From contig OZ076412.1 in assembly GCA_964187785.1 (NCBI GenBank), positions 23,312,001 through 23,376,000 on the forward strand: a DNA stretch of 64,000 nucleotides. Direction: 5' to 3'. Within the stretch, counting starts at the first letter, position 1. Each line of letters starts with the position of its first letter. Of this stretch, positions 5,757 to 36,139 are shown in pieces. The notes under the pieces are model-generated. The model saw only the letters and a program-made list of their open reading frames with translations. It was not told where the DNA came from and searched no databases. The translations under genes and the position numbers were made by a program. Source of the DNA: Amphiscolops sp. MND2022 (taxonomy: Eukaryota).

Positions 5757-5758
5757 TT

Positions 5759-8700
5759 TTGCCACGACTCCAAATATGTAACCGAATGTCAATACGACAA
5801 TATGTCATATCAGACCCACCCAATGTAACCTACAAGCAATACCATGATGACATCAACGAAACACCATCTATTGTCTGGCAGCAACAGATGGAAAAAGCCT
5901 ACATCAAAACCTACAAACTGGTCCATAATGACCGCCCAGACCGATACTATGAAAAAGACTACACTGCAGACTATCAAACACGATTTAGACCGCTCCAACT
6001 AATTGAAGGTTATAACCCTCACTACATTGACCCTGAATATGGCATAGATCCCTATTGGGACAATTCTCTATACGACCAACGGAAACTACAATTCAGATGC
6101 GAAGAGTACCCACCAACAGACGATGAAGATGACCCAGAGATACCAGACAATAAGCTATCAAGGGCACTCATCGAACTGTGGCAAACAAACTCTGAGATCA
6201 CTGATATGGAAGAAATAGAGGACACAAATAGTGAAGACGAATCACAGACCGAACCCGGCCTACTAGACGAAACAGCCTTCTTACACGTTCTAGTGACTAA
6301 TGAAGGAGAACCGGCTTACATACCTCTCTCTACGAACCTCGGATTAAAATACAAAAGACGGATGCTGTATTTCCCAATGGACTTTGGGGAATTGACCATA
6401 GACGGCCTCATCGACACCGGAGCCCATTCCAGTGCAATCCCAGAAGCAGACCTCAGGAAAATACGCCTTCTAGCGCCCCAATCAATAGTAAAAGAGGGAC
6501 CTGCTCCAACATTTCAAATTATGGTCGCAAATGGACAATTGGAAACCCCAAAAAGCACCGTTGAACTAAAATTCGAAGTAGGAGACATTGAATTCCATGA
6601 AATATTCATTGTAATGGAAAAATTGACCGGCCCGATAATTGGACTAATGTTCCTCCAAAGAAATCATACAGTCCTAGACATGCGTCAAGGCATCCTCAAC
6701 TTCCCCTATTTCTCCATGCAACTCAAAACAGCCGACCACAAGTACTCCAATGTAATGGAACCAATTCTCAATCCCGAGGATTTAACTATTCCGCCCAATG
6801 ACCGAGCGACAATTACGGTCAAATCACAGATTTACCCTGAAAACTTAGTAACAGGTGTATTACAGCCAAGCGACCTCCTAACCGAAGAAGGCGACATCAC
6901 ATTTTGTGCCGCAATTGTCACTTTGGCAGAAGGATCTACAAGTTTCCATATCAATAATTTTACAGATCAACCATTCAAACTTAAAAAGGGTCTGCATATA
7001 GCAAATTTCTCAGTATTAACCCCGGAGCAAATGAAACATGTCAAACCAATAGACCCTGTGTCCACTTGGCACTTGCTGAACGAAAACGAAGAAGACGCGA
7101 TTTATTATGTCAGCAGTCTATTAAAAGCAAATAAAAACAACGACCAATATGAACAATACTGGTTCCCAACTCCGGAGAACCCAGGAGATGAAAATTCCCA
7201 CACACCAATTCAAGCACGAATATTGCGGGAATTACGTAACTTACAAGAAGCCGAGGAACTTGACCCACAGCAAAATGACATATCTAGACAAAAATTCCTT
7301 GACAACTTCGATTGGAAAGACTCCATGCTACAACAACATGAGATCAAGAAAATAGAATCGCTCCTGGTAGAATTCCATGACATCTTTGCACGACATAGAT
7401 TTGACATCGGAATGAATGAAGAATTCACAGTCAAATTGACCCCTAAGGACGATTCGCCCGCTTACAGCCAAAGTCTTCCAACTCCAGTCAATTTAAAAGA
7501 GGACATACTTGTCGAATTGGCCCTCTTACACAAATATGGCATAATAACTACACTGCCATTTTCGAAATACGCCAGTCCCATATTCGCACAGAAAAAACCT
7601 AATGGGAAACTACGCCTACTAGTCGATTTGAGGAAAATCAATAACCTCATCTCAGACGACTACATCAACAACAACCATCCTGTGAGCACTCTCACGGACG
7701 CGGCGCAACACATGGCAGGCAAGAAACTCTTCTGCAAACTCGATTGTTCCCAAGCCTACCACTGTCTTCCAATGGCGGACCAAAGATCAATCGAAATGCT
7801 GGCATTTAATTTTGCCAGTAGAACGTTTGCCTATCGAAGACTTGCCCAAGGTCTCAGTCGATCCCTATCGGCCTTTTCAAGCTTTATGCGCAAATACCTG
7901 GACAAAGTTATTAAAGCAGACCAATGCGCGCAATATGTGGACGACATAGGCATAGCCGCCAACGACGCTGACCATCTACTCAAAAACCTCAGAGCAACAT
8001 TCGAGTGCATACGCAAAGCTGGACTAAAGCTAACAATGCACAAATGCCATTTTGGGGCAACGGAAATAGATTTCCTCGGAAGGACAATTACCCCTGAAGG
8101 AGTGAAACCACAGAAAGAACGAATAACTACCTTTCTGGAGAAAACAAAATTCCCAAAATCCAAAAAGGCCCTGCAACGATATCTGGGTTTCCTGAATTAT
8201 TACAGGAACTACATCCCACGATTATCGGAGAAATTAGCGCCATTTTTCCAACTCCTCAAAAAGGACGAGAAGGTTCTAGTGACAAACGAACTAGTACAAC
8301 AATTCAATGAAATCAACAAGGACCTTGACAGATGCAGCCAACTAGCATTAAAACAACCGTTGCCCAATACCCAGCTGGTCCTCATGACCGATGCTAGCTT
8401 CTTGGCAGCAGGCTATGCAATACTCACAGAAGACGATCCAAACCAAAAATTCACATCTGTCAGGAAATCATACGCGCCAATAGCCTATGGATCCAAAACA
8501 TTTACTCCTTCTCAATTGAAAATGTCTATATACGCCAAAGAATTCTTAGCGATATTTTACGCATTCAAAGAGTTCGGGCATATATTCTGGGGAACACCCA
8601 AGCCGATCACGATCCTTACGGACAACAAATCGGTAACTAGATTCTTCCAAACGAAGATAATACCCCCGGCATTGTGGAATGCGTGTGATTATGTTATACA

Positions 8701-10873: not shown

Positions 10874-10898
10874 TCAGAAATGTTAAATTATGTCCCTA

Positions 10899-10904
10899 TT
10901 TATT
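10899..10904 (-). terminator. Candidate AATAAA poly(A) signal of the antisense gene
   Basis: AATAAA on the minus strand about 170 nt past the stop at 11073 and about 25 nt from the pol stop. Confidence 0.4.
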
Positions 10905-11072
10905 TTACTGCCTAAGAAGGCATGTTTTTTACTGGGACCACTCTGACTTTATGTTACTGACAAGACTAACTATATAAATATACAAACAGAAGACATGTAA
11001 AACAAAGAAAACGAAAACCAACTGAAATTTACAAATCGAAAGACTAGTATGGCAAATGTACATTATGTACAT

Positions 11073-14000
11073 TTAGTCTTTAGATGAGCCCTCTCGCAAT
11101 TCTTGCACTGTCTTTGAAAGTTCTTCAGCAGGGAGATCTCCGAAATAGGCAAGTTTCTGTGCTTGGCCGGCAGCCCAATTAATCTTCCGAACAGCAGTAG
11201 TGGACACAGAGGATGAGCGTGACGCAGTACTGATACCGACAACAGGAACACTTTTCAAGCCCTTAAAAGCACTGGTGAGATTCTTTAAGAATTTGGCACG
11301 ACCAAACACGTCAGAGTGAACCCAAGGATCACCAGCGAAGTGCCTGGAACTAAATTGTCCCTCTAACTCACGATATTGGGCTAAGGCGGACTCAGTAGTA
11401 CAATTGGCAATAGCTTCTGGGCAGTTTGACAAATACGACTGGGCGGGCAAAATCACTGCAGAAAGTCGACAACTGGAGCTAGAAGTATCGACATCATGGA
11501 ATTTGATAGTCGGGAGTTCCTGATGGGCCTCAGTGATGCAGAGACAGCACAACCGGAAGAGGTGGAAAAGCCTTGAGCGACTACGGAATGATGGCAGAGC
11601 AATAAGGAAATCCAACATATCAACTATTGTATTGGGAGCATTCTTGACAGTATCACAAGTATTTCGGAAAAGATCGATGAACTCAAAATACTCTTCCTGG
11701 TAGTCACTCTTGACAGCTAGGTCCACCCAACCACGGAGGTGGAAGCTATCAAACAAGGCGTTGAAACAGAAAGTAGCCTGTTCCAGAGGAAGAGAAAGCA
11801 ACACATGTGGGTCGAAGCAACCCATCCCATGAATGATGTCAGCGGTGAAGTGAATGTCCTCCAACAAAGTTTCCAATAGAGAGACAATGTAGCCGCGAGC
11901 TTCCGTCCCGAATTTCTCCTTCTCTTTAGCGACCATTTCTTCTAGGCTGGCAGTTGGAGCCTTGTCAGAAGGGGAGCGTTTCACTTTAGCCTGGCAAGCA
12001 GCATCAAGGTCAACAGTAAACTTGAGTCGATTCAAAAAATCGCGACAAGATAACTGCCTCAGGTCGTCAGGGCACAACTGGAGCAACTTCGTCCACTCAA
12101 CGTCTCCGGGGATGTACTTGGGCAGAATGGCCCGGTGGCACAATTTCCTGACGTAACGGCAATATTGTCCGTAAACGAACAGTGCTGAGTCTCGTCGCTT
12201 GGCCAGACTACGCTCAAAGCATTTGGTATCTAAACAAACGAAGTCAAGATTAAGTCCCAAAATGTGATGACCTAGTGAAGCCTCCTACCTTCTCAATCAC
12301 TAATGGCAGTCAAGATCAAATTCCAATATCAAAAGGAAAGAGACAATTAGGGCCCAGCTTTGCAATGAAGGAAAATAACTAACAATCGCGGACTAGAAGA
12401 GACAAGAGTTCTAATTTAGCGGTGAACAAGTCGTCCTGGATGATCACCCACTCCAGACTTTGTGGCTAAAAGGAAAGATTATATATGAACTAGGGTCACA
12501 AGAAGGACTATCTCACGCGGGAGTTGTCGGAAAATTAAATAGACAAAGAGACGATTTATACCTTGTTTCGCACTCCTTGCATCACTTGGGTTGGTGCCAA
12601 TTTTGTCAGGTAGTCGTGAATAGTGGACCAATTCTTTACGAGTTCGGTACAAATTGTCGGCACCTTCTTGAGGTCAAAGTCACAAGCAGCGGAAGCCTAC
12701 AAAATAATAATCTTTACAATCATGCTATATATATTAGGAGGACAAAGGACTTATGGGCTACAATGGGAAGCAAAGAAACGATAGCTACATGTGGTAGTTC
12801 TAACAGAAATTTAAGTTGGACTCACCTTACACAACTCTGGACATTGTGGGGCCCATGGCTGGCTTGGACTACCACGGAGGAAGACGACCAAGTATTTCAA
12901 CTGCGAGAACATATCAATGCGACCAAAGACATGCGTGGTCTGAAGGGCGTTTGGGTGCATCAGGTCGGGCAGAGAAAAGGCTTCAAAGCGAAAGGGGTAT
13001 TGGATCCCGTGGTCATACAGTTTGGAGGATTCAAGGGCCTGGAACACCATAGAGGAACAGCCAGAAATGCTGACTAAATTCGGCTTGGAGGAAAAGCAGG
13101 ACAACAGGCAAGAAATGGCAGACAAGTAGCAATCAGGGTACGCATCAGACTGCAGATGTCTGTGGAGTTCTACACGGACGAGTGAGTCCCCTCTCCAAAA
13201 GCGGATCGACATACATCGGTAGATACCAGTTGTGGTGAACTCAATAGAATACATCCCAGTAGCGATGACATGACTGGAGATGTCAGCTAGCCCCCGCATG
13301 AAAATGTGGTGGAAGATGTTCTGAAATGAAAATGGATAATTAGAGAAGTTTGGGCCAATCGACCAAGCGGGCCTATATTTAAATATGAACTACAAAACTA
13401 CTTACGGTGAGAGTAGCAGATCCCCAATCGAATGAGGAGAAAAGGGCTTGATGGTTGGTGAATACACCAACCCTCGTCCACAAATTCTGCAAGAGCGAGA
13501 GGTTGCCATCTTGAGGAACGAATGTTCCGATCAAAGAGATGAGGGTACTAGTTCGCAAGTCGCTGGGATTGGTGATTCCCCCTATGCTGGCCATGTAATC
13601 ATCGTAAAATGGATAGCGACCTCCCGCATCAATGAGTGGAGCGTCTATAAAGTGGGGCTTCTCCTTTTCCAGTTCATAAGGAGTAAGGACATAGCCGTCT
13701 TTTCCTCTAACTTGATGTGTCACGACTCCTGTAATGCTATCTGTTTCTTGCAGGTGAACATAACGCCATTTCTGATCCTTTCGCAGGTGTCCTTCTTTCT
13801 TGTAATGGCGCAGTATCTCCCTCGCCCCTTTGGAATAAATGGACACGTTGGTTTTACACAACATGCAGTAGAACTTGAACTTATTGTGAATCGGGTCTAC
13901 TGGTCCAGTCACGAAGGTCCGGGTCCATTGGATGCCCTTGAAGTACGCATCCTTCATGACTTTTCCTGGCTTGCTCAATAATTTCCTCTTCTTCCGAGGG

Positions 14001-15124
14001 GGGCTTCGTGGCAATGTAGCCGTATCTTTAGTCCGGCCCAATGCAGATAACGGCTGGTAGTCGGTGCTGCTGTACCCACTGCCTGAAGTAGGAGTGGCAT
14101 TATCAGCTCGGGACGTGTTGGGTCGATTCTCCATGCTCGTCACGGGAGTGAGTGATAGAGGATCTGTTTCACTAATCACATCTGTGCCGGAAATTGACCC
14201 AAGTTGGTAAGGGTCTTCGTCGGAGTTTATGGCACCACTTGTATAACCATCACTCGTGTTCCCTCTTTGACTGTCTTCCTCTCCTGAACTCTCAGCTAGA
14301 TGGCGGGCTGGGGTGGGACACCTTCTGGGCATTTTCCTCTTTTTGTCCTGGGAAGTCCCCGTCGAAGCATGTAAAAGGAGGGATTTCATCATATGATATG
14401 AAGAAAGAGCGCTTTCATCGGCAACAGTTCTAAGGATCGCGTGCATCTGTTCTTGATTGAACGCGACGGTAGAGTGTCCAACTGGAAGTCGAATTGGTGT
14501 TGCAGCAGTAAAATATTTACGGATGATGGTTCTTCCTTTGGCTGACAACTGTCTGTCGCTGGATTCAAGCCTAGCCCGGTAGGCCTCTTGCTCCTCATCA
14601 CTGTTCCCAGTCTCCAAGTGAAATTCCCCTTCAAGGTCCGGGAAGTCCTTAGGGTCCAAAGTAACATTATGGGAAACAGGGGGAAAAGCAGCAACTCCAG
14701 AGCTGTCTAATAACTCCTCCGCATCAGTTGTGTCGCCATAAAGTGGCGCAGCCTCTTCCTGGGAGGTAGTCTCCTCCTTGTCATTAGGTTCTTCTGGACT
14801 AATTAGCTGACTAGGAGTTATAATGACGGTCTCTGAAACTGAGGCCTTCTTGAAAGCGAAATCCATGGTGGACATCTGGGGCTCTGTACCTTGTCGAGCA
14901 GGGAGGATTGAAGCAGATTCTGGCTCAGGGAGGCTCATCTCTGTGACTGTTCTCTCGATGAAAGTAGTAATGCTCTCATCAGTGGACTGACTGTGATTGG
15001 AAGTTTGCGAATTTGGACGAGGAGGGTCAGTAGTACTCTCGGACCTAACGTTCTCTGGATGATCTTCGTTGGAACTATCGATTGTAGGGACAGTGGATTC
15101 TGGCAAAGCCTTCGTAGACGACAT
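11073..15124 (-). CDS. Antisense spliced gene, ~1209 aa: zinc finger plus hAT-transposase-like body. Exons 15124-13406, 13320-12826, 12696-12562, 12465-12384, 12271-11073
   Basis: Three long minus ORFs plus two short exons join in frame through four GT-AG introns (85, 129, 96, 112 bp; phases 0,0,0,1). CMLC-x16-H-x5-H finger. The exon structure is corroborated by the paralog at 27879-30896. The start codon is uncertain (ATG 15124 follows a tttag acceptor). Confidence 0.82.
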
Positions 15125-15620
15125 GCCTAAACAGAAGGGAATAAATTTTTGCGGACAACTTCCTGAAAACGTGTCCATGTGTACCGCAGTAAAACCTTCC
15201 GGAAGTGAAAATGAAAGCAATGTTGAAATTGTTTAATAAAAGGGACAGGAAGTGTGTGAACGAGAGGAAGAGCCTTGATCAAGCTCATTTCCGTTCAGAA
15301 TTAAAAAGACCAGATAGCTTACCTATGATATTTGTCCAACTGGAGTCTGAGAGAGATTAGAAGATCGTTCCAACCACTCTGACAGCTTCTGAGGGGTCCA
15401 AAGGAATCAGTACACAGTGGTAGAGTGTCCGAACGGGTCCAGATCAGGAAAGACGTAGAGGGGTAATTATTGAAGTTAAGTTCAACTCGGAAAGAACTGC
15501 TGTTGGCCCGTTGAGTGAGCAATAAACCAAGTCGAGAACGACAGAAGAAACTAAAAGTTCGCTGATGAACGGGAGATAAAGAAATGAAACTAAAAGACTG
15601 ACTGTAATACTGTATAAACA

Positions 15621-15896
15621 ATGGATAAATACGATTATGAAGATGTAACGATTAACAATTTGAAAAGAATCAAGGTGATTGTAGAAGCAAATTGGAGTTC
15701 GTGGCAAACTGGATTTGATGTCAAATGTTTTCACAATTATGAAGATTATTTTGTGGATGGAACCTGCCAGAGAAATCCACATTATTTATATTTCGAAACA
15801 TGCATTTCCATTATTTTATTATTTCAGTTATTTTATTATTCTGGTTATTTTATTATTTCCTTATATGGAGAATTATTAAAAGTTACGCCATCTTGA
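15621..15896 (+). CDS. Small ORF of unknown function inside the element (91 aa; possibly an exon)
   Basis: ATG-initiated and protein-like over the first ~60 aa (MDKYDYEDV...YFETC); the tail is low-complexity and AT-rich. No family recognised. Confidence 0.3.
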   Translation: MDKYDYEDVTINNLKRIKVIVEANWSSWQTGFDVKCFHNYEDYFVDGTCQRNPHYLYFETCISIILLFQLFYYSGYFIISLYGELLKVTPS

Positions 15897-16291
15897 ATAG
15901 GATGCTCGAAGCTGAAATCCTATTGGTCGCCTGGGACGCATCGACGAGCGGGGCCTTCAGCTGAAGTTACAACTCCTTGAAGTTTTCAAGTGGCAATCAA
16001 GAGGAGGTAAACACTAGAAGAAGTCCTTGAAGGTTCTTTGCCGACTTAGGCAAACTGAAGTTGATCGACGGTCAACAAAGCGGGAGACGGCCGATATCAA
16101 AGAATATCTCGAAAAGTTTCATCAGTGAAGTGTTATGCGGGAAATGAAAGACCGGGAAAGTGTAAGGTAGAAACTATCGAGAAATTGGGATATGAAAATC
16201 GCCATTTGTCTCTTAGCTTTCAAACGGAACAGTTACCCTACTCTGACTAAATCAAATTTATTCTGCCGCATTCAAAATTGCAAAAAAGATA

Positions 16292-17143
16292 ATGAAAGAT
16301 AGATTCATGGCCCAGCGATTTCCTAGCGACTTTCAAGGCGCGGCGCCCGAAGGCATAGATATAATTTGCTTGTCCAGCGACGAAGAGGAGGAAATATGTG
16401 ACCTGAGTATGACTTCAGTGCTAGATCTCCAACTGTCATCGGAAGACGAAGAAATAGACGACGAGATCATGATGATGGCCCAGTGCGTCGAGATGGAATT
16501 GTCATCACCCATCCCAATACCTGGCCCATCCTATACGCTGAGGACTAGAAGTGAAGCTCCCCAGTATAACTTGCCGAGATATGGGACCTTTGGGACGAGC
16601 AGCGCGATAAGGCCTACACTGGACCAATCTTTCTTCTCACTGGGAAAAGGAAACGGCCCAATACGGCGGGACGACCGAGTGCGCAATAATCATCCAATCA
16701 AACTGTGTAGAGAAATTATTCCCACAGTGGATACTCCCATGTCGCCCCCACCCGAAGAGAAAGGGCCAATTTACGACTCCAATTCAGCGGACCGTCAAGG
16801 CGATACTACCCAGCAATCATTGGACACAGTTACAAACCATTTTCAAGGAATGGGAATTGAAACACACAATCCTATGGCAAATTACTCGGACTGCGTGATA
16901 TGTGGGAAATCTACAGTACAAATTCAGAATGAAGCAGTCACGGATTATTTGCGTAAGACGGCCACATTGGGAGAATCAGCTAATCAACTGGAAGCGCGCA
17001 AAAGAGCTTTTATCGAAGGAATGCAGGTGGGCACGTTCTTATTACTACCAGGGGGAGTGTCGCAGGCTGCCGCCTGCGATGGGAACGTCTATACAATCGA
17101 CCACACAAGGCCAATTGCTCTGCCTGGGACACTCCCATTATAA
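16292..17143 (+). CDS. Accessory ORF (283 aa) overlapping the PPT and the first 86 nt of the 3' LTR
   Basis: Uninterrupted ATG ORF with acidic hydrophobic motifs (IDIICLSSDEEEE, VLDLQLSSEDEE) and CVIC. The stop codon is inside the LTR. Confidence 0.7.
   Translation: MKDRFMAQRFPSDFQGAAPEGIDIICLSSDEEEEICDLSMTSVLDLQLSSEDEEIDDEIMMMAQCVEMELSSPIPIPGPSYTLRTRSEAPQYNLPRYGTFGTSSAIRPTLDQSFFSLGKGNGPIRRDDRVRNNHPIKLCREIIPTVDTPMSPPPEEKGPIYDSNSADRQGDTTQQSLDTVTNHFQGMGIETHNPMANYSDCVICGKSTVQIQNEAVTDYLRKTATLGESANQLEARKRAFIEGMQVGTFLLLPGGVSQAAACDGNVYTIDHTRPIALPGTLPL
17050..17057 (+). promoter_or_regulatory. Polypurine tract
   Basis: AGGGGGAG lies immediately upstream of the TG of the 3' LTR. Confidence 0.8.
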
Positions 17144-18778
17144 ATCAAAACTTTCAAACATTTAGTTTTATTTTGAGTATGTTGATTGATGTATTGCAGT
17201 ATTATTTTTCATGTAAAAGACATTTGACAGCAAGTTATACTGACAGGCAAAGAGGAAACGAGTTCAAATGTTTGCCTGTCCAGTATGGCTAGCTAGGCCG
17301 TCAACGGCTAAGTGGCCAATCGCAGCGCAGTTTATAACAACCATTCCTTTACTTATTACGTAACTGTGCTAATAGTTATTCAGAATGGACCAATACGGCC
17401 AATTAACTTGGCCGGCCTTACTATGCTTTGATGCTGTGGTTGAATAGTATTCAATAATTGAAATAGGACGAAAGCGGCTATATAACATAGCCGTCCCTAT
17501 CTTTTGTACTAATTGTCTTGGTGCTGTGCAATAAAGAAGGCCCAACTCGGCCGGTCGACATGACGAATACTCAAGTGCTGTATTACTTATCACATGAAAT
17601 TAGTGTTTCAATTAATTAGCAATTGAAGGACGCGAATAACCCATCCCATGTAATGACCAAACACATATAGTGTTAACATGCAGTGTTGCTTTTCTATATA
17701 TTGATGAGACTAAATTAGAAAACCCGGACGGCTATTGGCCGTACCGGGCCTTCATGTACCTGTTCAAAGGTGATGCTGTGTTATGATGTTAAAAAGGAAC
17801 TATAAGTCCCTTACAGCTACCCGCCATATGTATCTTACATGAAAGTTTCCTACATGTAAAAGTGTTTATGTATTTTGCGTTACATGTAAGTGCTATACTC
17901 CATGCGTCACTCGGCCTACTAAGGCACTTTGATCTACCCGCCCCTACCTGTCTGTAGTGACGTAATGATTCTATTTTTAGCAGTGATGTGTTCTATTTAT
18001 AACTTGTAAGTTATTTTTAGTATCATGACCCCCATAAAATTGCGAATCATGCCCACTTAGGTATATATACCCAGGTTGGGACTTCGCAAGACACAATTTT
18101 GCTAAACTTGATACAGTTAACCTACAAACTTTGCATTTATACAAGTTGTCTTGTAAAGCTTTCTTACTACTCGATTACAGGAATAATTCAAATATTACCT
18201 CCTGTAGAAATATTTTATGCCTTCCACAAGAAGACAAAAGGCCAAGGCCAGAAAGTCAAGAGAATTGGACATGTTGTCCGATTATGACAACATGGACGTA
18301 ATGTTAGGGGATGGAAATTCAAATTCTATAGAAAGAGAATTGGACAGTCTCATAAACGTCCCAGACGGGCGACGTGACTATGGGCCTTTCCCAAACAGGG
18401 AAAATTCGTCCCAAGAAAATGAAATTAGAGACATCAATAATCAAAATGAGCCTGTTAGGGAGGAAAGATTGGTTGAATCGATCAATACACTATCAAGTGA
18501 AATGAATGCGAGAATGTCTCGTGAAATGGAGACCATGATGGACTTCATGCAAAATCAGATTAGTAGAGCAATCAACTGTGCTATTAGTGAGAGAATAATA
18601 CCAGAGATACAAAACATGGTAGGAAATTTGCCTTTGAACCAACATGGCGTTGAGCCGCCCACGTCCTTTGATGAGAACAGAACTGGGAACATGTGGAAAA
18701 ATACAAATGAGAAGATTACAAAGAAGGACTCAAGGTCTGCTTGTGATCTGAGGGATCATACGGACTTTACTCCTTACA
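17058..18778 (+). repeat. 3' LTR (1721 bp)
   Basis: Direct repeat of 2897-4617, preceded by a purine tract and followed by the TSD GATAG. Confidence 0.96.
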
Positions 18779-22348: not shown

Positions 22349-23416
22349 GATATGATCTGATATGATGTTAACTTATTTGATGTTTACTTATTTGATTTGA
22401 TTTGATGGTATGATCTGATACAATTTGAAGTTTGTAATTTGATGTTATCGTTTTCAAAACGTATAAGTTGGTGTATTTATTATACATTCAATGTTTATAT
22501 TATTTGAAGATATTTCATTTGATTTCAATTGAAGTTCGGTTGTTTGTTTGAATTGAAAAAAATGATGGGAGGTCTCTTGAAGTTTTACTTCAAGAAATCT
22601 CCTTTTTTAAATCAAATTTTTGGTACTCCTCAGTCACTAGGCTGACTAAGTGTGGTCATTACGATACATATGCCGCAAAAGTGGATTTTATCATCAAGTG
22701 TAAAGTGTATTTTCCGTAAAACGAGAACGAACCGTATTCTAGTCAAACAGAGTAGTGTGTTCATCGTGAATTTTGATGCACAGTGTAATCAGAAATTGCG
22801 GATTTTGGTCATTGACGGTCCCTACAAAATTTACATGGGCAAACGATGTAAAATTTTTGTTGTTCTTTCATCGTTTCCCCCAGGATTTCACTGAATCGCG
22901 TGCGTAAGTGATGTAATTGAGATGAAGTAAGGATTCGAGTATATTCTAAAAATTCATCGTTTTTACATCGCTTCATCTTGCACGATTATTCTACTGGAAG
23001 CACTGAACGATGGGCAAACGATGTAAAGTTTTTGTCGTTCTTTCATCGTTTTCCAGAATTTCACTGAATCGCGTGTGTAGGTGATGTATTTAAGATGAAG
23101 TTTAGAATTCAAGTCACGACAGGGCCTACATGTGTGGATACTTGGTTAAATATGAAATTCTATGCATCCAATTGGTGAAATGAGTTATTGACGACTGATA
23201 GTTCCAGTCATGACTGCATGTATATTTAAACGAATCGGACTAATAAACATTGATAACGGTACGAATACTCATTGACAACTGATAGTCCCAGTTATTATCA
23301 TATCAGTTTTTAAATGCATCGTAATTAGAAACATCATAATGGTGATGAGTGTATTTGACAACTGAATGTTTCAGTCATGTTTACATGTAATGAACTAAAT
23401 GTGTACGTGTTGAAAT

Positions 23417-23896
23417 CTAATAAAATACATCACGGTGAAAGGAATGAAGATGACGACTGTGTATTCCAGTATCGGAATGACCATTGGCACTAGGCTTTGC
23501 CATGTTAAATCCATTCCCTTCTCTATGATTAGAGGATATCTGTAGTGTCAGTGCGAGAACTAAGTCAGTCAGTTCTCCAATTTGTCTATTCATCTCGTAG
23601 AATCTCTGATCGATCACGTTCCTTCCAACGTTATTTCGGTCGTTTAGGAGATTATCACTATCTAACTCCGTCAACTGGTAGTCGTGATGGAATTTGAGAA
23701 TCATCCATGTAGATTTTTGCAAGCGAGTGTGTTCTCGGAAGCGTGAACAACTTTCATTAACGGCAATGGCGGGAAACAAGAGTAGAAAATAGTAGGTTGT
23801 TTGTTTAAGCATTTCAAATTGCATTTCATTTGTAGCCACGTCGTCCTGTTGTGCGTCTTGTGGTATTTGTTTACTCAGGAGATTTGTATCACTCAT
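23417..23896 (-). pseudogene. Degenerate Gag-N-terminus-like ORF, possibly within the 3' LTR of a second, minus-strand element
   Basis: Coiled-coil-like segment (QRFYEMNRQIGELTDLVLAL) similar in style to the LTR-encoded Gag part of element 1. Position and strand relative to the adjacent cargo gene mirror element 1. No second LTR found. Confidence 0.4.
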
Positions 23897-24427: not shown

Positions 24428-27400
24428 ATGTCTGAGAACGAAGATGCCCTAGCGTTTGGTGCTTCGTTGTCTGATTTAGTGTCAGAAGTGGCGAACCAAA
24501 TGGCAGGGCTGGATGCCCCTACTTTCGAGGAGAGTGGCGTTGGATTAAATCTGCCCGATTTAATGTTGGAGGCCAGTCCATGTTGTCAGTTATCCACGCG
24601 TGTTACTGCATCTAATGTCGCTGGGTTGGGCGAGTTGTTGGATCTCGTACTATCTCAAGAATTCGGTGAGTGCTTTTGATTTATGTGGCATTTTTCCCGT
24701 TCCTTGTAGGGTCTGTCTGTAGCAGTCATATTGCTTGTGTCAGTATGTCTGCGGTTTAGATTAAGGGTACGTTTGAATATTTTCACAACAAATTGCCTAA
24801 AAGTGGGTCCTGGCAAGTGTATCATTGTCTACGGTTCCCTTAATTCGAACAACAACAATTCATAGTTATTTATTTTTTCCCACTTATTGTGGGGGCGTAT
24901 TCGGTGTATGCACGCTCGCCCTCACCGTCGCAAAGACCAGCTCCCACCACGATCGTTCGCGCTCTCCGTTCCCGCTAGGTCTTTTCTTCTTTTCTCCTGT
25001 TCGACCTCGCTTAGCAAGATGGGCAACACTCAGCGGGGCACTAGAGGTGATGGGGACAAATCTCAGGCACGTTTCATACTTTAAAGTCGTTTCATATTTC
25101 AAAGTAATTTCAAAGTGTCAGGTTAAGTTAGTCCACACCTGAAGATCGACTATCTCAGGGTTGGTTAGTCTCCACAAAACTCCTTTAAACAATGTTTAAA
25201 CAAGGAAACCCAACTAGTGCTGAATTTGGGTGAATATACTTGGGAATTCATCCTTTTTACATCATACTCTACATTGGTGCTTGAACTTAGTTTTGCTAGA
25301 GACTGAGAAAATGGGAAAGTACATCCTAATTTCATCAATAAAAGAGTGATTGTGCTGGATCGATAATTCATCGTCAACTCAGTAACGCGCTGGAAATACC
25401 AAAGATGGGAGGAAATTTGTCTTTTTTTCATCGCAAACCCAACTAGTGCTGAATTTGGGTGAATATAGTTCGGAATTTATCCTTTTTACATCATACGCTA
25501 AATTGGTGCTTGAACTTAGTAAACATCTTCGTTTTGCTAAAGAGACTGAGAAAATGGGAAAGTACATCCTAATTTCATCAGTAAAAGAGCGATTATGCTG
25601 GATTTGCTTATTTGAATGTAAAACACATCGATAATTCATCGTTAACTCAGTGACGCGCTGGAACTTCGTAACGCGCTGGTATTTGAAATAACAAATATGG
25701 GAGGAAAGTTCTTTTTTTCATCGCAAACCCAACTAGTGCTGAATTTGGATGAATGTAGTTGGGACTTCATCCTTTTTACATACGCTAAATATCTACTAGT
25801 TTTTATCACCTATTCATCAGTGCAATAGAATAACGTTCGATATTGACTGTATTGCTTGGAGAATCCATCGCCTTTTCATCGCTTAATGTGTTTTACCATT
25901 GATTTGACTCAGTATTAGTACAATAACGATCATTTTCGTCATGTTTCTATCTCAGCAATGGAGAGAGGCTTTGAAAATCACGCCTAAATAAATTTGTTGA
26001 TGAATTCACGATGGTTAACTTTAGTCAATGCGCTAATCTAAATCCACATCTTTCAAGTTTGACAGTCAGCGATAAAAATAGATTAGCTTTCGTCAACTTT
26101 CAGTCTTCAAGTCAAGTAGATTAGCAACGATGAATTTCCGATAAATAATCACGACAGTTCCCTCTGAGGCGGGAGCTTACTGACTATGTGTCAAAATCCA
26201 TCTCTTTTTCATCTTCCAGGGAAACGTCACGAAAAGAGGAAAACCAAAACAATTGAAAAAACGATGACCTTAGTAACAATGAAACATAACACAGCAGAGA
26301 ACTGGGCCTGAAAGCAAGCTGTCGTGACTTGAATTCTAAACTTCATCTCAAATACATCACCTACACACGCGATTCAGTGAAATTCTGGAAAACGATGAAA
26401 GAACGACAAAAACTTTACATCGTTTGCCCATCGTTCAGTGCTTCTAGTCGAATAATCGTGCAAGATGATGAAACGATGTAAAAACGATGAAGTTTTAGAC
26501 TTTACTCGAATCCTTACTTCATCTTAATTACATCACTTACACACACGATTCAGTGAAATCCTGGGGAAACGATAAAAGAACCGCATCTAAATGAACTTTT
26601 ATATGTTAACGTGGGGGCATTGTCGGTGTATGCACGCTCGTCCTCACCGTCGCAAAGACCAGCTCCCACTACGATCGTTCGCGCTCTCCGTTCCCGCTAG
26701 GTCTTTTCTCCTTTTCGACCTCACTTAGCAGTATGGGAACATAAGCGGCCCCAAGGGGCCGCGGGGCACTAGAGGAAATGGGGACATATCCGAGACATGT
26801 TTTATACTTTGAATCACTTGATAGCATCAGATCTTAATTGACCTGAATTTTTTCAATTTTAGACGTTATTCCCTTTTTTGGACGTCACGGTATTTTGACA
26901 ATTTTTCTGTATTTTAGTCGTTTTTCTCTAATTAAGACGTTATTCCCGTTTTCAGGTTTAGACGTTATTCCTCTTTTTAGACGTTATTCCTCTGTTTAGA
27001 CGTTATTCCCGGTGGACCTTTAGACGTTATTCCTTAGACGTTATTCCCTCCTCTAACTTTGGCGTTGTTTCAGCTGATGTTACCATGCCTGAGCTCATCA
27101 GTTACATGCGACGGTTCCGTCGGTCCGTTGAGTCTGGAAACGGTGATAGTGGAGAAATCGGGACTGCAGAGCTTTTCCGCAGATTGGATGCCTTTCTGGC
27201 GTCGCATCTCGGTTAGTGAATCATGTGTTGGGTCATTGTTAAACAACAGTCATCTGGGCTGGATGCTCTCGGTCTGGGGGTTTGGTTTGCGTACGTCCAT
27301 CTAGTAACGGGTTCCAATGGGGAATTATAGCTTTGGGTGTTTGTTGTTATTTGCAGATGCTGGAGTGCGTGCTGAAGTCGCCGTTGGGCGATTATCGGAG

Positions 27401-30400
27401 TTGTTCAATCGGATAGAGCGCGAGCTGAATCAGTGGGTAAAGGCTGCTGTTGAGTCAACTTTGGGGCACCTCGGGACTGTGGGTGCTTTGGCAGCAGAAG
27501 ATTTCTGGACCAAGTTGAAAACAGCATTGCAGGAGGCAGGACGTCCGCTGGTTGAGTCCAATTCAGAGTTGACGTCCATGCCCAGTGTATCCCGTTCGAG
27601 GTGTGTGGCTGGGAGTCTTATTGGGACGTCAGTAAGAAGTCCCTCGGAGTCATCAGTGGTGCCGTCTGAGTTTGGGCATGGTGGTGGAGGCCCGTCAGTA
27701 TCTGGTGTCAGCATTCCCCCGTCATCGTCAAAACCTGGTAAGAAATCTCCAAAGATCACGTGAGGGGTTTTAGTTATAATGGTGTGATCAAGTGATCAGT
27801 TAAGCTTAGAGGCGTAGTTTAACGTAAACTAGCATAGCATAGATAAATTTTTTTTGAGAGATTTTTGTTTTGGTTTAGTGCGCAAAAGACCTATCAAGAC
27901 GTTGAAGCCATCCTTTTTTGTGTCTGGTGTTGTCGGGGATTTTGTTGGGTTCCCTAGAAACAAGAGGGTCATCGATGGCTTCGCTCGCTGTTTGTTGTGC
28001 AAGGTAGACCTGAGCATAGCTTGACGAGGTTTGCATAACTTATGGGACCACTGGAGAGGGCGGGAACACACTCGCTTAGAACAGAAGTACCGGATCATGA
28101 TGAATAGGCCTCTGCTGGACCGGTCATGTCGTCCCGTTTCAAAGGAGGAAGATCAGAGAATTCGGATGGAACGGATGTTCGAACCCCCTGTGTATCTGGA
28201 GTCTGCATTGGGGTTGACTGTTGAAGAGCGCATCGCCATTGAAGTTGCGGAAGCAGAGTGAGCGGAAAAGCCGAAGTTGTCTGATGAGAGTGCTGCCTAT
28301 CTGTGGTTGTGTAACTTCATAAACTGTTTCGTGTCAATGACTGGATTTGGACCTGTAGTGAACTTCATGTAGAGATGGGCAGACAATCTTCGTGGTGAAG
28401 TTCGGCTTGCTGTGCGTTCGCTGACTCACAGTGGATGTCAGGTAAGTGTCGTCGTTCGTTGTTTTTTTTAGGTGAAGCGACTGTGGTTTTGTGAAATGTA
28501 TACTTCGTTTTGAAGTGTTTGAGTGATGGGGGGGTCAATAGGGAGCTGTTTTGACTTGTTGTGCCCTGCGTTAACTTTGTGTGTTGTTCTGTGTTTAGAG
28601 TCTGGTGCTTTATGGTGTTTATCCATATGTAATTGAGAAGTTCGACGCCATGTTGGCCACTGGGGCACGTTTTGGATTTCACTTAATGCGAGACGGGAGT
28701 TTGCGTCGCCTGGACTGTCATGTGTTCGACGCTCTGACAGTCAAGTCCTTTGTTCTGGCTGTGGTTCCTGCTGGTCATGGTTGGGAACAAAAGTTGATGC
28801 GGAATACTTTGTCCGTCCTCGCATGTGTCACGTCCCGTGGAGGCTTGTCCTTTGTGTGTGTCTCAGACAACATTCGGTTGGGGCGGGCTCTAGCTACAGT
28901 GTCGCACCCTGTGGTGCCCGTGGTCGGCAAACGATTCGATCTGGATTGGATGCGAGATGTCATCTCGCGGCAGTTCCTAAAGGAATTCAGTGGGCTCGAG
29001 CCTTTTGGAGTGCTGGAGTACTTCCGGTACCGTTTGTCCGCGGTCATCTCAGACAGTGCTTTCGACCAAATGCCGATGTTACGAAGAGTGAGTATCATGT
29101 CGTTTGCTAGTTATCTGTACACTGTGTTATTTGTACATATATTTTTTTGTTTTTTGCAACCGGGGTAAAAGTATGCGAGTGTTCATGTACGATAGATCCT
29201 CATCGCGTATTTTAGTTTGTTGCTGGGGAACTGCCAGTGGCGCGGATCCCGGATCTTGCTAGCTTGTGTGCGGAATTGGTACAACGATGGGATGACTTGG
29301 GTGTGTATTTCGGGGTCCACCGAGCAGTCGGCGGTCTGGAGACGAGAAACATGACCTCCATGGAAACACAAGTTTTCAACGATGCGATGGCACGACCGCG
29401 CTTCGCCGTCCTCAAGTTCATCCTCGAAACCGGTGAGTATGTTGTTTCGTAGCGTAGTTCTGCCTGGTACTGGGGAGGGTGTTTTTGTAGAGTTTTGGGT
29501 TGGGTAGTGTATCGTATGTTGGTTGTTTTAAAGCCTCAATTTGTGTGTTTTTGTTTTAGTTGTCGCTCAGTGTCCTCGATTGTGCAGTTCAGGCCGAGAT
29601 CGGGTGTTCTGTTTTGAGCGTGAGTTGGCTCTGTTCCTGCGGGCTCTGTGGACTCTGGTGTATGGTTCGGACGATCTACCTGTGGAGTTCGATGTGCAAG
29701 GACTGCTGAGCTACCGCGGAGGAGAGTGTGGAACGAACGACGAAGCTCGATATCAGGCTTTGTTCGGACAATATTTCCGGTTCGACGTGAGTCAGCAGCG
29801 TCCCTATTTCTACCGGGAGGTCCAGAAGTTCTTGAAGAGCATCTGTGGTCAGTTCGTGGACGAGTTTGAGCAGGGATGGATACGGCATTTGAGTCTAATG
29901 CCGTTTGACCCAACTTTGATGTTCAACGGATCGATGGACCGCTTAGTGGACCGATTGGTAGCAACTGTCTCAGTGTTGAGTTTCAGTGATCTGTGCGAGT
30001 CAGACGACGGAGGGATCATTCTCCGGCAATACCGTGAAGTGGTGGAGCTTTTCAAGCGACGGTGGACAACTGGGGTGCCAGTAATTGATGATATTGTGGC
30101 GATGTGGATGTCATATCCTAACTGGTCGCGATGTCAAGCTTTGCTGGGAGTTGTTCAAGTCGTGTTTGGTGGAATGATACACGGATGCTATAGGACCGAT
30201 TTCAGAGACCTGGGAGTAACCGTCATCGATGACGGAGTAATGTTATCCAGTTTGAATCTCGTTCGTAGCTGGATGTCCAGTGGATTCGTAGGGCAGTCTC
30301 GATGCTCTATGACTGGTTTTACGCGTCACTGTCAGACAACGGACGTGCAAACGTCGCGGTTGCAAGATGAATCTCACTGTGTTCCTTGGGAACAACTGCT

Positions 30401-30896
30401 GAAAGTGGGAATTAATGATTTGTATGATCGTTGTTCTGTTGCGCTGGGATCATCTAGTGGACTCCCGGAGGTTCCCGTTGTGGACGAGTATCGGTCGACT
30501 GTGTGCGAGCAATTAAGGACACTGGCGGCGAATGCTGTGGCAGTCAAAAGTCCGGCGAAGAAGATATCGGTTCAAGGAACGAGTGTTAAGGCGACTGATG
30601 GACGGGGCCCTCGGACTCAAACATCGGTGGGAATAAGTAGTGGTATTCCAGCAAAAGACACTCCTAAGCGGAAACAACCTACTCGGACTGCTCAATCGAG
30701 AGGGAGCAGAGGGCAGAGAACTGATGGTGTACCGACTGAGCCGAAAAAAGTTGCGAGTTCGAGTGCAGATACTGGGTCTGCTGTGGGGCCTAGTGGAGAA
30801 GGAGGAAGTCCGGCATTCGCTGTCATGGATAATGACTCAGTTGATAGCGCGTTATTTGCCCGAAAGGCTCGATCCGAGTCATCCGAAGAGCATTGA
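24428..30896 (+). pseudogene. Paralog 2 of the zinc-finger/hAT-like cargo gene. Exons 24428-24665, 27074-27211, 27357-27737, 27879-28441, 28599-29087, 29216-29432, 29560-30896
   Basis: All junctions are phase-compatible GT-AG. CLLC-x16-H-x5-H finger; CAELVQRW, FCFERELA and PFDP segments align by eye with element 1. In-frame stops at 28022, 28259 and 28370. Linkage of the first exon is less certain. Confidence 0.8.
24890..26580 (+). repeat. Non-coding dispersed composite repeat family (copy A)
   Basis: Colinear with about 53365-54700; partial copies at 26610-26810 and 46505-47090. It lies within the putative first intron of paralog 2. Boundaries approximate. Confidence 0.8.
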
Positions 30897-31311
30897 CCCC
30901 GAAAACCTTTAGTGTAGTTTCACCTGTTGTTGAACTCTTTGAAGTGAACTTTTCGCTTTTTGGCTTTAGATTTTTGAAGTTGATTGATTTTAGTTTTCAC
31001 TTTGTTTTCTGGCAGTATGATTTTTTTGTTGATTGCTGTTTGATTTTGATGATGCATAGCTATTACCTATACCCGTTGACTTTGGTACTTAGACAGATAT
31101 GTTGGGAATTGAGATTCTTGGTTGGACACTTCTTGAATTGAAATTGCGTTAGCTGAATCGTTGTTTTTTAAGGAGGCTCATTAAGCAACAGATGTAGACT
31201 TGGATTCATATGTTAGGCGGTTCTTACTGTCTTTTTGCATGTACTAGGGTTAGGTTGAGTTCCTTTTGTTAGTTTGACGTAGTCTAGTAATGTGGTTCAA
31301 AATTTTGCCGC

Positions 31312-31728: not shown

Positions 31729-33499
31729 TTTGCCGCTAACTCCTAAGTTCTTTCCTAACACGAGGCGAAGTCAACGAATTGTCAGGAGTGCCTAAGGGGT
31801 TGGGCGTAACGTGGTTCTGATTTGGTAAGTATTATTGGATTACCGTTTTAATGCATTTGGTTTTTGGTTGAAGTTATATTTTTGTTCGTTATTGGGAAAA
31901 GGTTTTTGTCGTCACAAAAACCCATGCAAAACTAACACTGAATCCACTTGCTAAAAAGCAAGCTTCATCTGAATATAACCAGCCACACAGACACGCGTTT
32001 GACGACGCACCCACACGACTCCAGTATGAGTGAAAAGCAAACTGGGTGGGTCATTGATTATTCAAGTATGACGTTTGGCAGGCAGCTAATCATTTCTCTT
32101 AGTTCGACAGATTGTTTGGGAACGGAATTATTGTTCACGTTTGTTCGCGGTTGTTACGATAGTTACGTAATCGATGTAGTTTTTTTTAGTTGTCACTATT
32201 TAGATTTTGGTGTGAATTGAATAAATTATGCTTCGCTTGTGTTCGCGTTGCACGTGTTTCCACTGCGGATTCGTTGCGATAACTGTTGTTTGCAGTCGTC
32301 GCATGGCGGTGCCGCCATGTTTGCTATTGGCAAGCGGTATGAGCTATTAGGGGATTAGCTTGGGTCACCTACCGTAGGCCCTACGGTAGGTATTGATGAC
32401 TGCAGGCCATGTTCGTCGTGTTTGGCAGTTCGTTCATTTGAGTTAGGTACTTTACGATGGGAGTGGCGTAATTGCAGATCACTTACTTTCGTATACCTTT
32501 TGACTGTGACTGTCATGAGCAGTTGTTGGTGTCAGGTTACACTTTTAAAGGGAAGAGATGAGAATAAAGGAAAAATGGTTTGCGTTTTAATTGTTTGTAC
32601 TGCAAAGTTTTACTTGTTAGTGACTACATTTAATGATTAAAGAAAATTGTGATTTTTAAAGGTTTTTGTTTTTCAGTAGAAGTTCTCGGAGGGCTGGCGT
32701 ACCGTGTAGTTCGTACGTTACATGTAAAGTTTTTTTTACGTTACATGTAAAGTATTACTAGGATACTCGATCATTCAAAATCACAACACTTCATCCACTT
32801 GTATCAGCAATCTGTACGATGCCATTTAGCAAACAACCTCCAGTCAATAATTGATGCAATCACCATGATGATTAGAAAACGCGGTAGTAAATACTTAGCA
32901 TAAAAGTAATTGGTATAATTGCGTGCTAAAATGACTGGTGCTCTAAACGTCTCGTTACCATCCTAGAGGGTAAAATTACATGAAATCATAGCAAGTATGG
33001 GTAACCCCATACACACACTTAAGAATGACAAAGTGAGTTCAGCATCATGCATAAACGTACATACAAAAAACACTAGAAGTAAGCAAAAGTGCCATACAAC
33101 TTTAGGTTCCATGTGCTACGACAAAAAACCGTTCCTAGACTAGATTAGACCAACGAAGAAAAACAACGAGTACATGCAGTTATCATGAACACTATAACAT
33201 AACAAAAAATTTCTTTTTCTTTTGACACATGCAGAACAAGTAAAAATCCTCTTGTAACGTCCTAAACACCCAGTACGGAAAAAAGAAAAAACAAAAGAAC
33301 GTACTACGGTGGTGGAAACCACCAAACTCAATTACCAAATGAGCTGAATACTAATAAACTACAGTATTGATGCAAGACAAAAAGGTAATACACAAAATTC
33401 ATTGAACAATACAAACAATGAAGTGATAAACAAGAGAAATAAATACCAGCGAACACAAGAAAATCTGGGAAAAGTCTGCTTTAGTTCAAAAAGTTTCTA

Positions 33500-34358
33500 C
33501 TAATACTCCTTCGAGTATGAGGATCCACCTTCGTTGCTACTTTCTTCAATAGTAAATGAAAGCCTGCTCGTCTGAACTGCACCTTCACTGAAACTTGCCA
33601 AAGTTGTTCTTCCCTTCTTATCGGGACGCCCACCGGTTCTTTGGCCTCGATTGCCTCCCCGCTCCGATGACCTAACACTCGTAGCTTTCCGTTTCGATCC
33701 CGATGTGCTCGGGGTTGAAGTCGATAACACAACCTCAGTCTGCAGTTGTGGCACCTGCGCTGCAGATCGCTGTCCCTTCGTTGGACTTCGTCGGTTGGCA
33801 ACAGGACTGGCTTCCATCAATCTCAATTGGTCACAAACAGTTGACTTGTATTCATCAACAACAGGGTGAGACGGGAGACCCCCAGTTGACTCAAGAACTG
33901 CAATACAACGCCCGAATAGCTCATCAACCCCTCGTTTGACCAGCTGGTCCCACGGGATAGCCCGAACATCGTCGTTTAATCGGGAAGCTTGCATGTCTGT
34001 GGAACTACAATGACGAACAAAGCCAATCATCAAAAAGCCGCGAATGTCGGGGGCTCCGACATTCTTTCTGCCCGAATTCTCCGGTCCTCTTCTAATGACA
34101 CGGGCCTACAGGACTTGTCCAATAGCGGCCTATTAGACATGATGCGGAAACGCTGCTCAAGTCGAGTGTGTTCCCTCCCCTTTCAGTGGTCCCACAAATT
34201 GTGTAACCCCCGACCAGCAATACGAAGATCCACGCGACACAGACGACATCTAGCATAGCCGTCTATAACACGCTTGTTCCTCGGGAAACCAACAAAGGTC
34301 CCCACGACGCCTGAGACAAAAAACGACGGCTTCAGCGTCTTGATTGCACGTTTTCGCC
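33500..34358 (-). pseudogene. Paralog 3 of the cargo gene, with an internal deletion
   Basis: RKRAIKTLKPSFFVSGVVG...CRLC..H is close to paralog 2 and uses the same acceptor position. Stop at 34183-34185. The sequence jumps from the EPPTF segment to the C-terminal IGFVRHC segment near 34040 (~2.1 kb missing). Confidence 0.85.
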
Positions 34359-36139
34359 CTGTAAACACACGAAAAACCCAGTGAAATAAACTGCTCTAGA
34401 ACCTTAAAAACCTTCAAAAAAAACAAAAACAAAAACTGTGTTTGTCATTAGTCCTTAGTTATATGGTGAAATGCACAAAAAATGGTAAATGCGCAATGGA
34501 TGACTGGTTATTCCGGAAATGAATTTGCTAGTCCGTAGATTCACAATAACGAATCAATCCAGCCAAAGTTCGCCAACGAAAGCCGTCTGCATCCAACTTT
34601 AAATGTACTTTCGAATGAGTCCAACACCCGTTTCGACACAAAGTATAGAAGTTTTATATTGAAAAATTTAGAATTGTGTATTAAAAATACTTTATTGAAA
34701 ATACTGAGAAGTGGCGAAATGCTGCAAGCGACTGCAAACGCATTTTCGTCAAAATCACAATAACATGCGTTTTTATTAGGAATACTAAAGATTAGTATAA
34801 GAAATCCTATTTGTGTATAATGAATCCTTTTTGTGTATAAGAAATACTGTTTGTCTATATGTTCTCCGCTTGACACTAGTATAAGAAATCCTTGTAATGG
34901 GGATATTTATTAGAAATCCTAATAAGTCGCATTAGGTTTATTGATAGCGTGTATATAAAATCCTCCGTTTTCACCAATTATTAAAAATCCTTAAATTTTC
35001 GAAAAAGTTAAAACATACAAATAGGTAAGATTAATACAAGAAATAATACATTAGGGGCCAGTGAAAATTCCCTTGTGGAGCATTTAAGGATATTTAATAA
35101 ACTTTTGACGCTCGTGAAAGTTGTGTCTTGTAATGTCTTATAATGTATTATATCAATTGTTTTTGTATGTAAACATAATTAGTATGTTTATGACCGAAAC
35201 TCGGGAGGTTAAATGTTGACTCCGCTGATTGACGGATGAACCGTATAACACTCGAATCAAGCAAATTAGGGAAATTGAGATAATCAACACAAGCTACCTC
35301 CCAGCAAATGACACCGATTATAAACTGCAAAAAAATTTATTTGAATTAGGAGAATGATCAAAGTTTTCACGATTCTCAACTCAAACAGCATAGACGAATG
35401 AAACTGGCTGTCTATGGATTGGCGGTTTGTGATGCTTCTAACTGTAAAACATCGATTTTTCCCGCAATTTATTTGGGTCATCCCGCAAGGGACACAAATA
35501 TTCGTTTGTACGCACATAAAAAACATCGCTCATACAGCCGCCGTTCTACTGAAAGGTATTGTGATGGCCGCAAAGTTTTCGAAGCGAGATGTATCAAATC
35601 CATGCTAACAGGCGGAAAACAGTCAGAAAAAATGACCGGTAATAGAAGAGAGCTATTCAGCGCAAAAATCATACAAGTACACAGCGGAAAAAGGTGAAGA
35701 ATACCGCGTCAAATGAAGAGAGTCCGAAAAACCCAACAAGAGAAACACCGCTGAAAAGCCAAACGCAATCGGAGATGAAACATTGGATGAAGCCAACTTA
35801 AAAGTCGAATCGCCAAACTCCGTGGACGAAGTGCCAGCAAGAGAGGAGGCACAGTGGTCAACACGACAGAGCTAGGGGAGAATGCAATACCCCAAGAAGC
35901 GGTACAAGGGGGGAGATAATCTCCACGAAATGTGCGAAGGCCGAACTGCCCGAAAGGAATCAGGACGATGAAGAGCAACATATTAAATAGAGGAATGTAT
36001 GCCTTGCTTTTGAAAATCATTGTCCATTTCGAAAATGGTTGAGGATTAGATCTGAGATTTAGTTGCTATCTAATTAAAAATTATGTTCACAAAATAGGTA
36101 GGTGTATGTGGTTACATGTCAGAATATTCTAAGTCATAA

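Follow-up and report, generated by a model that had tools for sequence, protein, structure and literature searches.

The 64,000-nt stretch of Amphiscolops sp. MND2022 analysed here (contig OZ076412.1, positions 23,312,001 to 23,376,000; hereafter the window) carries at 24428-30896 a gene model whose introns resemble those of a gene inside a neighbouring Ty3/Gypsy element. This locus raises the question of whether introns have been gained or lost within a mobile lineage, and of how a gene carried by elements that encode reverse transcriptase (RT) could keep introns at all. Below, the gene is called the cargo gene and the five clades of its family are called E1 to E5; the window gene belongs to E2, and elements 1 and 3 of the window carry members of E1 and E3.

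The window gene and its relative in element 1

The window gene is modelled with seven exons and 1120 codons on the + strand, and every intron is bounded by GT-AG, although the spliced aligner accepts GT/GC-AG alone, which partly presets canonical ends. The features in and around the gene are as follows.

23125..23673, - strand: 3' LTR of the E2 element, rearranged remnants that match both LTRs of complete sisters
24428..24665, + strand: predicted exon 1 (ATG; phase-1 donor), 78-94% amino-acid identity in five sister loci
24776..27055, no strand: dispersed repeats inserted later into intron 1, ends approximate; sister alignments halt at 24775 and pick up at 27056
27074..27211, + strand: predicted exon 2
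27357..27737, + strand: predicted exon 3
27879..28441, + strand: predicted exon 4, with a C2H2/BED-like finger and premature stops at 28022, 28259 and 28370
28442..28598, + strand: intron I1, phase 0; in E1, E2, E4 and E5, not E3
28599..29087, + strand: predicted exon 5, 489 nt; matches predicted RNase H-like strands, catalytic Asp not conserved
29088..29215, + strand: intron I2, phase 0; in E1, E2 and E4, not E5 or E3
29216..29432, + strand: predicted exon 6, 217 nt (211 nt in relatives); covers the Ix site uninterrupted
29433..29559, + strand: intron I3, phase 1; in E1, E2, E4 and E5, not E3
29560..30896, + strand: predicted exon 7, with a helical region, low-complexity tail and stop
31729..32712, - strand: cargo-to-pol spacer; pol, next in complete sisters, is missing here
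32970..34465, - strand: cargo fragment from another E2 subfamily, inverted and internally deleted

The same intron 1 measures 180 nt in a related locus (L044). Seven full-length relatives matching the window gene at 90-99% were fetched. Three of the seven have opposite-strand pol and LTR sequence on either side, two of these three together with gag, while pol is missing from the other four, as from the window copy; gag-pol is present in E2 sisters. Given this pol and LTR context of its relatives, the window gene is the cargo of a deleted element and, judged from its sequence, a pseudogene copy (three stops, gag-pol lost) of a Ty3/Gypsy antisense cargo gene.

The two other elements of the window provide the comparison.

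2897..18778, + strand: element 1, complete Ty3/Gypsy; LTRs 2897-4617 and 17058-18778, 5-bp target duplication, gag 4056-5756, pol 5696-10873
11073..15178, - strand: element 1 cargo gene, five exons after pol on the opposite strand; 1213 aa, no stop
15178-13406, 13320-12826, 12696-12562, 12465-12384 and 12229-11073, - strand: predicted exons of this cargo gene, last acceptor corrected
12466..12561, - strand: intron Ix, 96 nt, phase 0, common to E1 and E5
57446-61304, + strand: element 3 pol remnants
62214..64000, - strand: element 3 cargo, a frameshifted core-intronless E3 member that continues beyond the window end

The LTRs of element 1 are 99.9% identical and its pol order is PR-RT-RH-IN (Pfam: RT, RNase H, integrase). 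Element 1 and six complete relatives across the five clades all have LTRs of the form TG..CA, a primer-binding site and a target-site duplication.

The earlier note on this DNA had taken the two cargo genes for diverged paralogs. Formal alignment finds a homology that is real but remote, with a local score of 87 (300 shuffles: mean 41.9 +/- 4.6, maximum 57), an E1-E2 profile-profile probability of 93% (E 3e-7) and a mean identity of 14.7%. The exon lengths given then are as stated (489 nt at 28599-29087 and 217 nt at 29216-29432, against 495, 135 and 82 nt in element 1), and the 96-nt intron of element 1 (12561-12466) is confirmed in the gene model. Its common intron positions with phases 0, 0 and 1 were also recovered: in intron-blind alignments the column is identical for I2 and for I3, and that of I1 is shifted by one beside a one-residue gap, with 6/6 MAFFT settings agreeing.

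Two of its arithmetical arguments fell away. The exact match of 217 nt to 135 plus 82 nt is a coincidence: the exon is 211 nt long in 14/16 other E2-clade loci and 210 and 214 nt in the remaining two, and the window copy alone carries a 6-nt in-frame insertion near 29234-29239. The distance from the last acceptor to a CFER motif, put at 17 codons in both genes, becomes 3 codons in element 1 when its conserved acceptor is used (window 12230), which lies 8 nt ahead of the CFE codons in 13/13 readable relatives (15 fetched, two not anchored by the pattern). The acceptor used previously, 50 nt upstream, is found in no copy other than that of the window and the two most closely related to it, and with the conserved one 15/15 relatives yield one model that has four introns and is less broken. 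The loss of an intron that two copies (L067 and L068) seemed to show was an artefact of that earlier acceptor, as their stops and frameshifts vanish with the conserved one. The motifs themselves do not align, the E2 CFER lying about 13 residues downstream of the E1 CFER and reading WFER in 7/9 distant E2 loci; I3 is still homologous between E1 and E2 once anchored on the upstream helix. A protein search at E <= 0.001 returned no longer relatives of element 1's last exon, which is weak evidence. The earlier note is thus partly supported, in that its conclusion holds but these two numerical proofs do not.

Five clades, their introns and the predicted protein

Genome searches, each with at least 95-150 matches from 517 to 8055 first-look candidates, put the copy number at hundreds or more. 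Clade E3 was reached via weak profile matches from element 3 of the window, E4 via locus L075, and E5 via a search of 1.84 billion proteins with 652 matches at E <= 0.001, among the 150 matches listed. Three database proteins are sister to E3, and at the protein level their alignment breaks off where I1 would lie, as that of E5 finger exons does. Two others (P0134 and P0149) look deeper than the sampled clades. Left out before the counts were two degenerate loci (L133, L125), a rearranged one (L064) and three partial ones (L041, L043, L075).

The 76 gene models (16 in E1, 17 in E2, 18 in E3, 8 in E4 and 17 in E5) differ in four core introns. E1 has I1, I2, Ix and I3; E5 has all of these except I2; E2 and E4 have all except Ix; E3 has none. 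The shared columns hold I1 in 57 copies, I2 in 41, Ix in 33 and I3 in 58, with 0 in the 18 E3 models, and I1 is found in 7/8 E4 models. This map is unchanged in 6/6 alignments. The 96-nt intron, which had been called extra in element 1, is not private to it, since 17/17 E5 models carry Ix plus the same 82-nt following exon; being common to E1 and E5, Ix is old.

In E3, the frames are open for 862-925 codons from finger to stop (12/12 first loci). The E3 frame can stand in for a cDNA made by nature: it aligns without gaps over the I2 and I3 sites and within 1-2 residues at I1 and Ix. A phase-1 intron ahead of the finger exon is present at the same site in both E3 and E5, cleanly modelled in 17/18 and 16/17 loci, respectively. 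The five-clade intron map, with its core-intronless lineage, is what is new here.

In the fetched stretches, the integrase lies antisense to the cargo and downstream of it in 69/74 loci, which places the cargo as an antisense ORF (aORF) between pol and the 3' LTR. Six complete elements, one or two per clade, have LTRs that are 99.2-99.96% identical and 5-bp target duplications; with LTRs so nearly identical, all five clades have moved recently.

A fold of the whole core was feasible because the E3 clade is intronless. AlphaFold modelled an E3 frame with a pLDDT of 91.9 and a pTM of 0.78 from 80 partly fragmentary rows. Foldseek of this model placed the hAT transposase Hermes in all top ten ranks (best E 1.4e-5), and VIA also ranked Hermes best (Z 13.2, rmsd 5.1, 401 aligned; next 6.8). 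The ESM Atlas neighbours were hAT/FAM200/ZBED5 clusters at 0.91-0.93. The E3 cargo is accordingly predicted to have an RNase H-like fold with a large helical insertion, as in hAT, and profile homology would extend this fold to E1, E2 and E4. The last exon of the window gene itself gave a weak model (pLDDT 62), for which Hermes ranked third (Z 4.8), tied with unrelated folds. The link to hAT is a structural one only, shown on the predicted E3 model: the PDB sequence search had no match (best E 0.76), and HMM comparison with 14 free hAT frames of the genome reached a best E of 0.1. At that value, the free hAT transposases were unusable as an outgroup for the cargo.

The N-terminus carries a BED/C2H2 finger with ligands C41, C44, H61 and H67 conserved across the five clades; Pfam zf-BED in the sisters is below cut-off (E 0.03-0.04). 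For the DDE triad, whose expected positions we take to be those of Hermes, no acidic residue is conserved in the five clades where strand 1 ends, behind strand 4 or within the final core helix, these sites being set by predicted secondary structure and not by residue superposition. Pfam detected neither a hAT family nor Transposase_28 (PF04195), the Retand TRP28 domain, in the exons and 12 whole E3 frames. Pfam is likewise silent there on the dimerisation domain PF05699; the structural overlap extends to Hermes residue 609, and the Atlas neighbours carry PF05699. The cargo protein is thus predicted to be a catalytically dead hAT transposase. It shares the predicted finger, RNase H-like core and helical insertion with Hermes (PDB 8edg/2bw3/4d1q) and with domesticated FAM200/ZBED5/GTF2IRD2-like proteins. 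However, it lacks a conserved DDE or Pfam match and has about 10% identity to them, and it resides inside LTR elements with 5-bp duplications, whereas those relatives are terminal-inverted-repeat or host genes.

Trees and the direction of intron change

Trees were built from 42 of the 76 cargo models and from 44, then 16, integrases. The cargo tree is ((E2,E4),(E1,(E5,E3))), with support of at least 98 for each of the five clades; its two deep nodes have 100/100 and 98/98. The same clades, five in all, recur in the integrase trees. With either of two different outgroup sets, each made of integrases that are unlinked to cargo and lie on long branches, these trees place the root between (E2,E4) and (E1,E5,E3); midpoint and outgroup roots concur. 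A basal position of E3 was rejected (p-AU 0.0013), as was E1+E2+E4 as a single clade (0.0028). The careful integrase tree gives (E2,E4) a support of just 80/81, and integrase does not resolve the order of E1, E5 and E3 (p 0.41 for E1+E5, which is not rejected). Within clades, cargo and pol have been shuffled, with pol far more uniform than cargo; in one locus (L057), the pol matches that of element 1 at 99.5% identity and the cargo dS is about 2. Because of this shuffling, the root of the cargo tree can be read from pol only imperfectly. From the concordance of cargo and integrase trees, we infer a single capture of the cargo in the common ancestor of the five clades.

On the cargo tree with the integrase root, I1, I2 and I3 map as ancestral. 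The clear losses are those of I2 on the E5+E3 stem, before the two clades split, and of I1, Ix and I3 in E3. The earlier note had read the 96-nt intron as a gain or a loss; mapped on the tree, Ix falls on the root branch, where one gain or one loss costs the same, and the clear losses concern other events. The turnover of introns within a mobile lineage is borne out by the map and the trees.

Ix may instead have been gained once on the E1+E5+E3 stem and not lost from E2+E4 and, in a wider version, every intron may have arisen inside the retrotransposon after the capture of an intronless hAT, a reading to which we give slightly less than an even chance. The equal cost on the root branch suits it, as do several free hAT transposases of this genome, which are uninterrupted frames of 597-697 codons; no donor hAT for the cargo was identified. 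However, the polarised core events are all losses, and Buchmann et al. report that loss predominates in transposase genes (PMC4158355). A gain of Ix would be compatible with later losses.

A proposed route for keeping and losing introns

The cargo gene is likely spliced. A look-up of window positions 11000-15300 listed no RNA data set with this sequence, which has no bearing on expression. Among the core introns of the gene, 140/189 are not multiples of 3. Between subfamilies, intron identity falls to about 0.35-0.55, with intron and synonymous sites saturated, while junction codons and exon lengths stay constant. The dN/dS medians are 0.04-0.09 per clade in all five clades (16 unsaturated of 138 pairs). 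These data support a real, old gene under long purifying selection, in line with the earlier proposal of low identity, an old family and long-term selection on a spliced cargo.

Our account as a whole, which we regard as distinctly probable, is that a likely spliced, antisense, hAT-like cargo keeps its introns by facing backwards and loses them via a spliced RNA copy. Only the strand bearing GT-AG signals gets spliced. The packaged genomic RNA would be the opposite strand, and its intron copies, having no usable splice sites, would be reverse-transcribed intact, while the cargo mRNA itself would be spliced. This mRNA would be complementary to the genomic RNA, making co-packaging possible, and would share its polarity with minus-strand DNA. 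The 3' introns could then be erased first, either when RT switches templates during plus-strand synthesis or when cDNA later converts a chromosomal copy. Template switching onto mRNA has been documented for LTR elements (PMC5131818), and the RT model predicts adjacent loss and 3' bias (PMC3652778).

E3, without I1, Ix and I3, without added sequence and with the upstream intron kept, fits precise, adjacent, 3'-biased loss, a pattern that RT-mediated loss predicts. The lone loss of I2 between retained neighbours speaks against a simple 3'-first model. That the losses came from cDNA of spliced cargo mRNA appears likely to us. None of eight E1 copies with odd frames or structure showed a recent precise intron loss; one copy (L197) has no modelled I1, probably through a larger deletion. 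More tentatively, and with the balance tipping slightly towards doubt, the introns may have travelled, within a disarmed transposase gene captured from a DNA transposon, through the whole history of the lineage by staying antisense, with the element's own RT occasionally rewriting the gene from co-packaged spliced mRNA.

Separate exact genomic deletions, or break repair without an RNA template, would be an unlikely source of the losses. I2 was lost singly, and the long E3 stem (0.84 changes per site) allows three events, as this explanation needs; however, three adjoining 3' introns are gone scarless with the adjacent 5' intron kept, and the RT model calls for just such loss of neighbouring introns biased to the 3' side (PMC3652778). 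It is quite improbable that the intronless core of E3 is ancestral and that E1, E2, E4 and E5 acquired introns later, the nesting of E3 then being due to cargo swapping or a long-branch artefact. Within-clade swapping is real (L057) and the outgroup branches are long, but the five clades match in both trees, the midpoint root equals the outgroup root, the AU test rejects this placement, and rooting the cargo tree on E3 would still require, for I2 and for Ix alike, either a single loss or a pair of gains. Least of all do we favour a gene acting mainly as antisense RNA in self-silencing with an incidental protein; dsRNA regulation by antisense ORFs was raised by Vicient and Casacuberta (PMC7264820) but the low dN/dS medians with saturated synonymous sites in five clades and the conserved finger ligands argue against it.

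Under the preferred account of a spliced antisense cargo, the protein might be a nuclear DNA-binding helper of the element, in regulation or targeting, and not a nuclease; by analogy, we consider the chances of this evenly divided. A nuclear or DNA-binding accessory role has been proposed for plant antisense ORFs in PMC7264820 and PMC11963269. These two sources describe antisense extra ORFs between pol and the 3' LTR in maize Grande (gene23), rice RIRE2, Silene Retand (TRP28) and Botrytis Boty. The cargo resembles the plant and fungal ORFs in place, orientation, presence in most copies, conservation and probable nuclear or DNA-binding role, and the Retand ORF has, like the cargo, a transposase-like domain. 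Unlike them, the cargo is predicted to adopt a hAT fold over its full length and to contain as many as six spliceosomal introns, with lineage-specific intron loss; the word intron has a count of 0 in the two sources. The 2020 paper (PMC7264820) requests a search for spliced antisense transcripts and describes the origin of this ORF class as mostly unknown.

Plant CACTA transposases (PMC4158355) are alike in old conserved intron positions, predominant loss, loss of the whole set in some clades and a proposed role of RT. However, CACTA elements are mobile as DNA and depend on RT supplied in trans, whereas the cargo rides an RT-encoding element and in each cycle takes the form of RNA, as the strand that is not spliced. 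For LTR-mediated retrocopies (PMC5131818), a template switch onto co-packaged mRNA is proposed as it is here, but retrocopies drop all introns at capture and are mostly in parental sense, whereas the cargo introns were kept and then lost piecemeal much later. Antisense LTR ORFs and transposase intron loss (the latter in PMC4158355) are each known, and their combination was not found in print: the literature searched, chiefly openly available papers, showed no antisense hAT-like gene with several introns carried by LTR elements.

ORF-based annotation would catch just fragments of such cargo genes. A hAT transposase would give the antisense ORF class a traceable origin, and the present family suggests that antisense placement may let an LTR element retain an accessory gene with many introns for an indefinite time. 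The mechanism of intron loss has long been debated, mostly from old events. Here, a single genome offers one gene in four intron states, within young elements that encode RT, and DNA with spliced junctions can therefore be searched for directly. If the proposed account is true, a genome with hundreds of intron-rich and intronless copies could catch RT-mediated intron loss in the act.

Gag start, extra frame and cargo exchange in element 1 and a relative

The gag frame of element 1, the complete Ty3/Gypsy element of cargo clade E1, starts within the 5' LTR and continues through the primer-binding site, and the gag start is therefore repeated in the 3' LTR.

4047-4640 and 18208-18783: 5' and 3' LTR regions of element 1, with the gag start inside the LTR
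16247-17143, + strand: second extra ORF (~282 aa), sense to the element and directly 5' of its 3' LTR

The primer-binding start is identical in element 1 and its relatives across all five cargo clades (E1-E5). A weak dUTPase-like match below the cut-off (E 0.014) lies between protease and RT, at residues ~360-440 of pol (5696-10873). The second extra ORF had no match in a Pfam search; its first 120-180 residues are 58-99% conserved in most E1-clade loci.

At locus L057 (G000:C2:13339248-13349247), pol is 99.5% identical to that of element 1, while the cargo has diverged to a dS of ~2: the cargo was swapped between near-identical elements.

A composite without gag-pol and other repeats

The E2 cargo copy and the adjoining inverted fragment of another E2 subfamily form a composite lacking gag-pol, which was found in at least three further genomic places at 96-99% identity, with exon 1 missing in two of these. 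Some agent has evidently mobilised or duplicated it.

26319-35000: E2 composite, considered with loci L036-L039 and L042
~46900-50300: array in which a 77-bp unit is repeated in tandem 35 times or more
50304-50975, + strand: ORF of 223 codons beside this array
20077-20715, + strand: ORF of 212 codons
18792-20040, 42244-42569, 43611-45573, 51005-51113: numerous MITE-like or foldback sequences, each a near-perfect palindrome 80-240 nt long
57868-59352: tandem duplication of 742 bp (98.7%) inside the decayed pol of element 3

The 77-bp array adjoins a repeat that recurs in the intron 1 insertion of the E2 cargo. Neither the 212-codon nor the 223-codon ORF had a match in a Pfam search.

Relatives of the cargo, and free hAT transposases

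Six loci (L134-L139) encode free hAT transposases that have RW motifs and open frames spanning 496-697 codons, and HMM comparison found no relationship between them and the cargo. Cargo finger exons were recognized in seven database proteins (P0032, P0034, P0040, P0067, P0079, P0134, and P0149), with 28-49% identity to the cargo models. Since the best match of P0040 in this genome, among the matches listed, is ~46% identical, the cargo family probably extends to another species or to clades not yet sampled.
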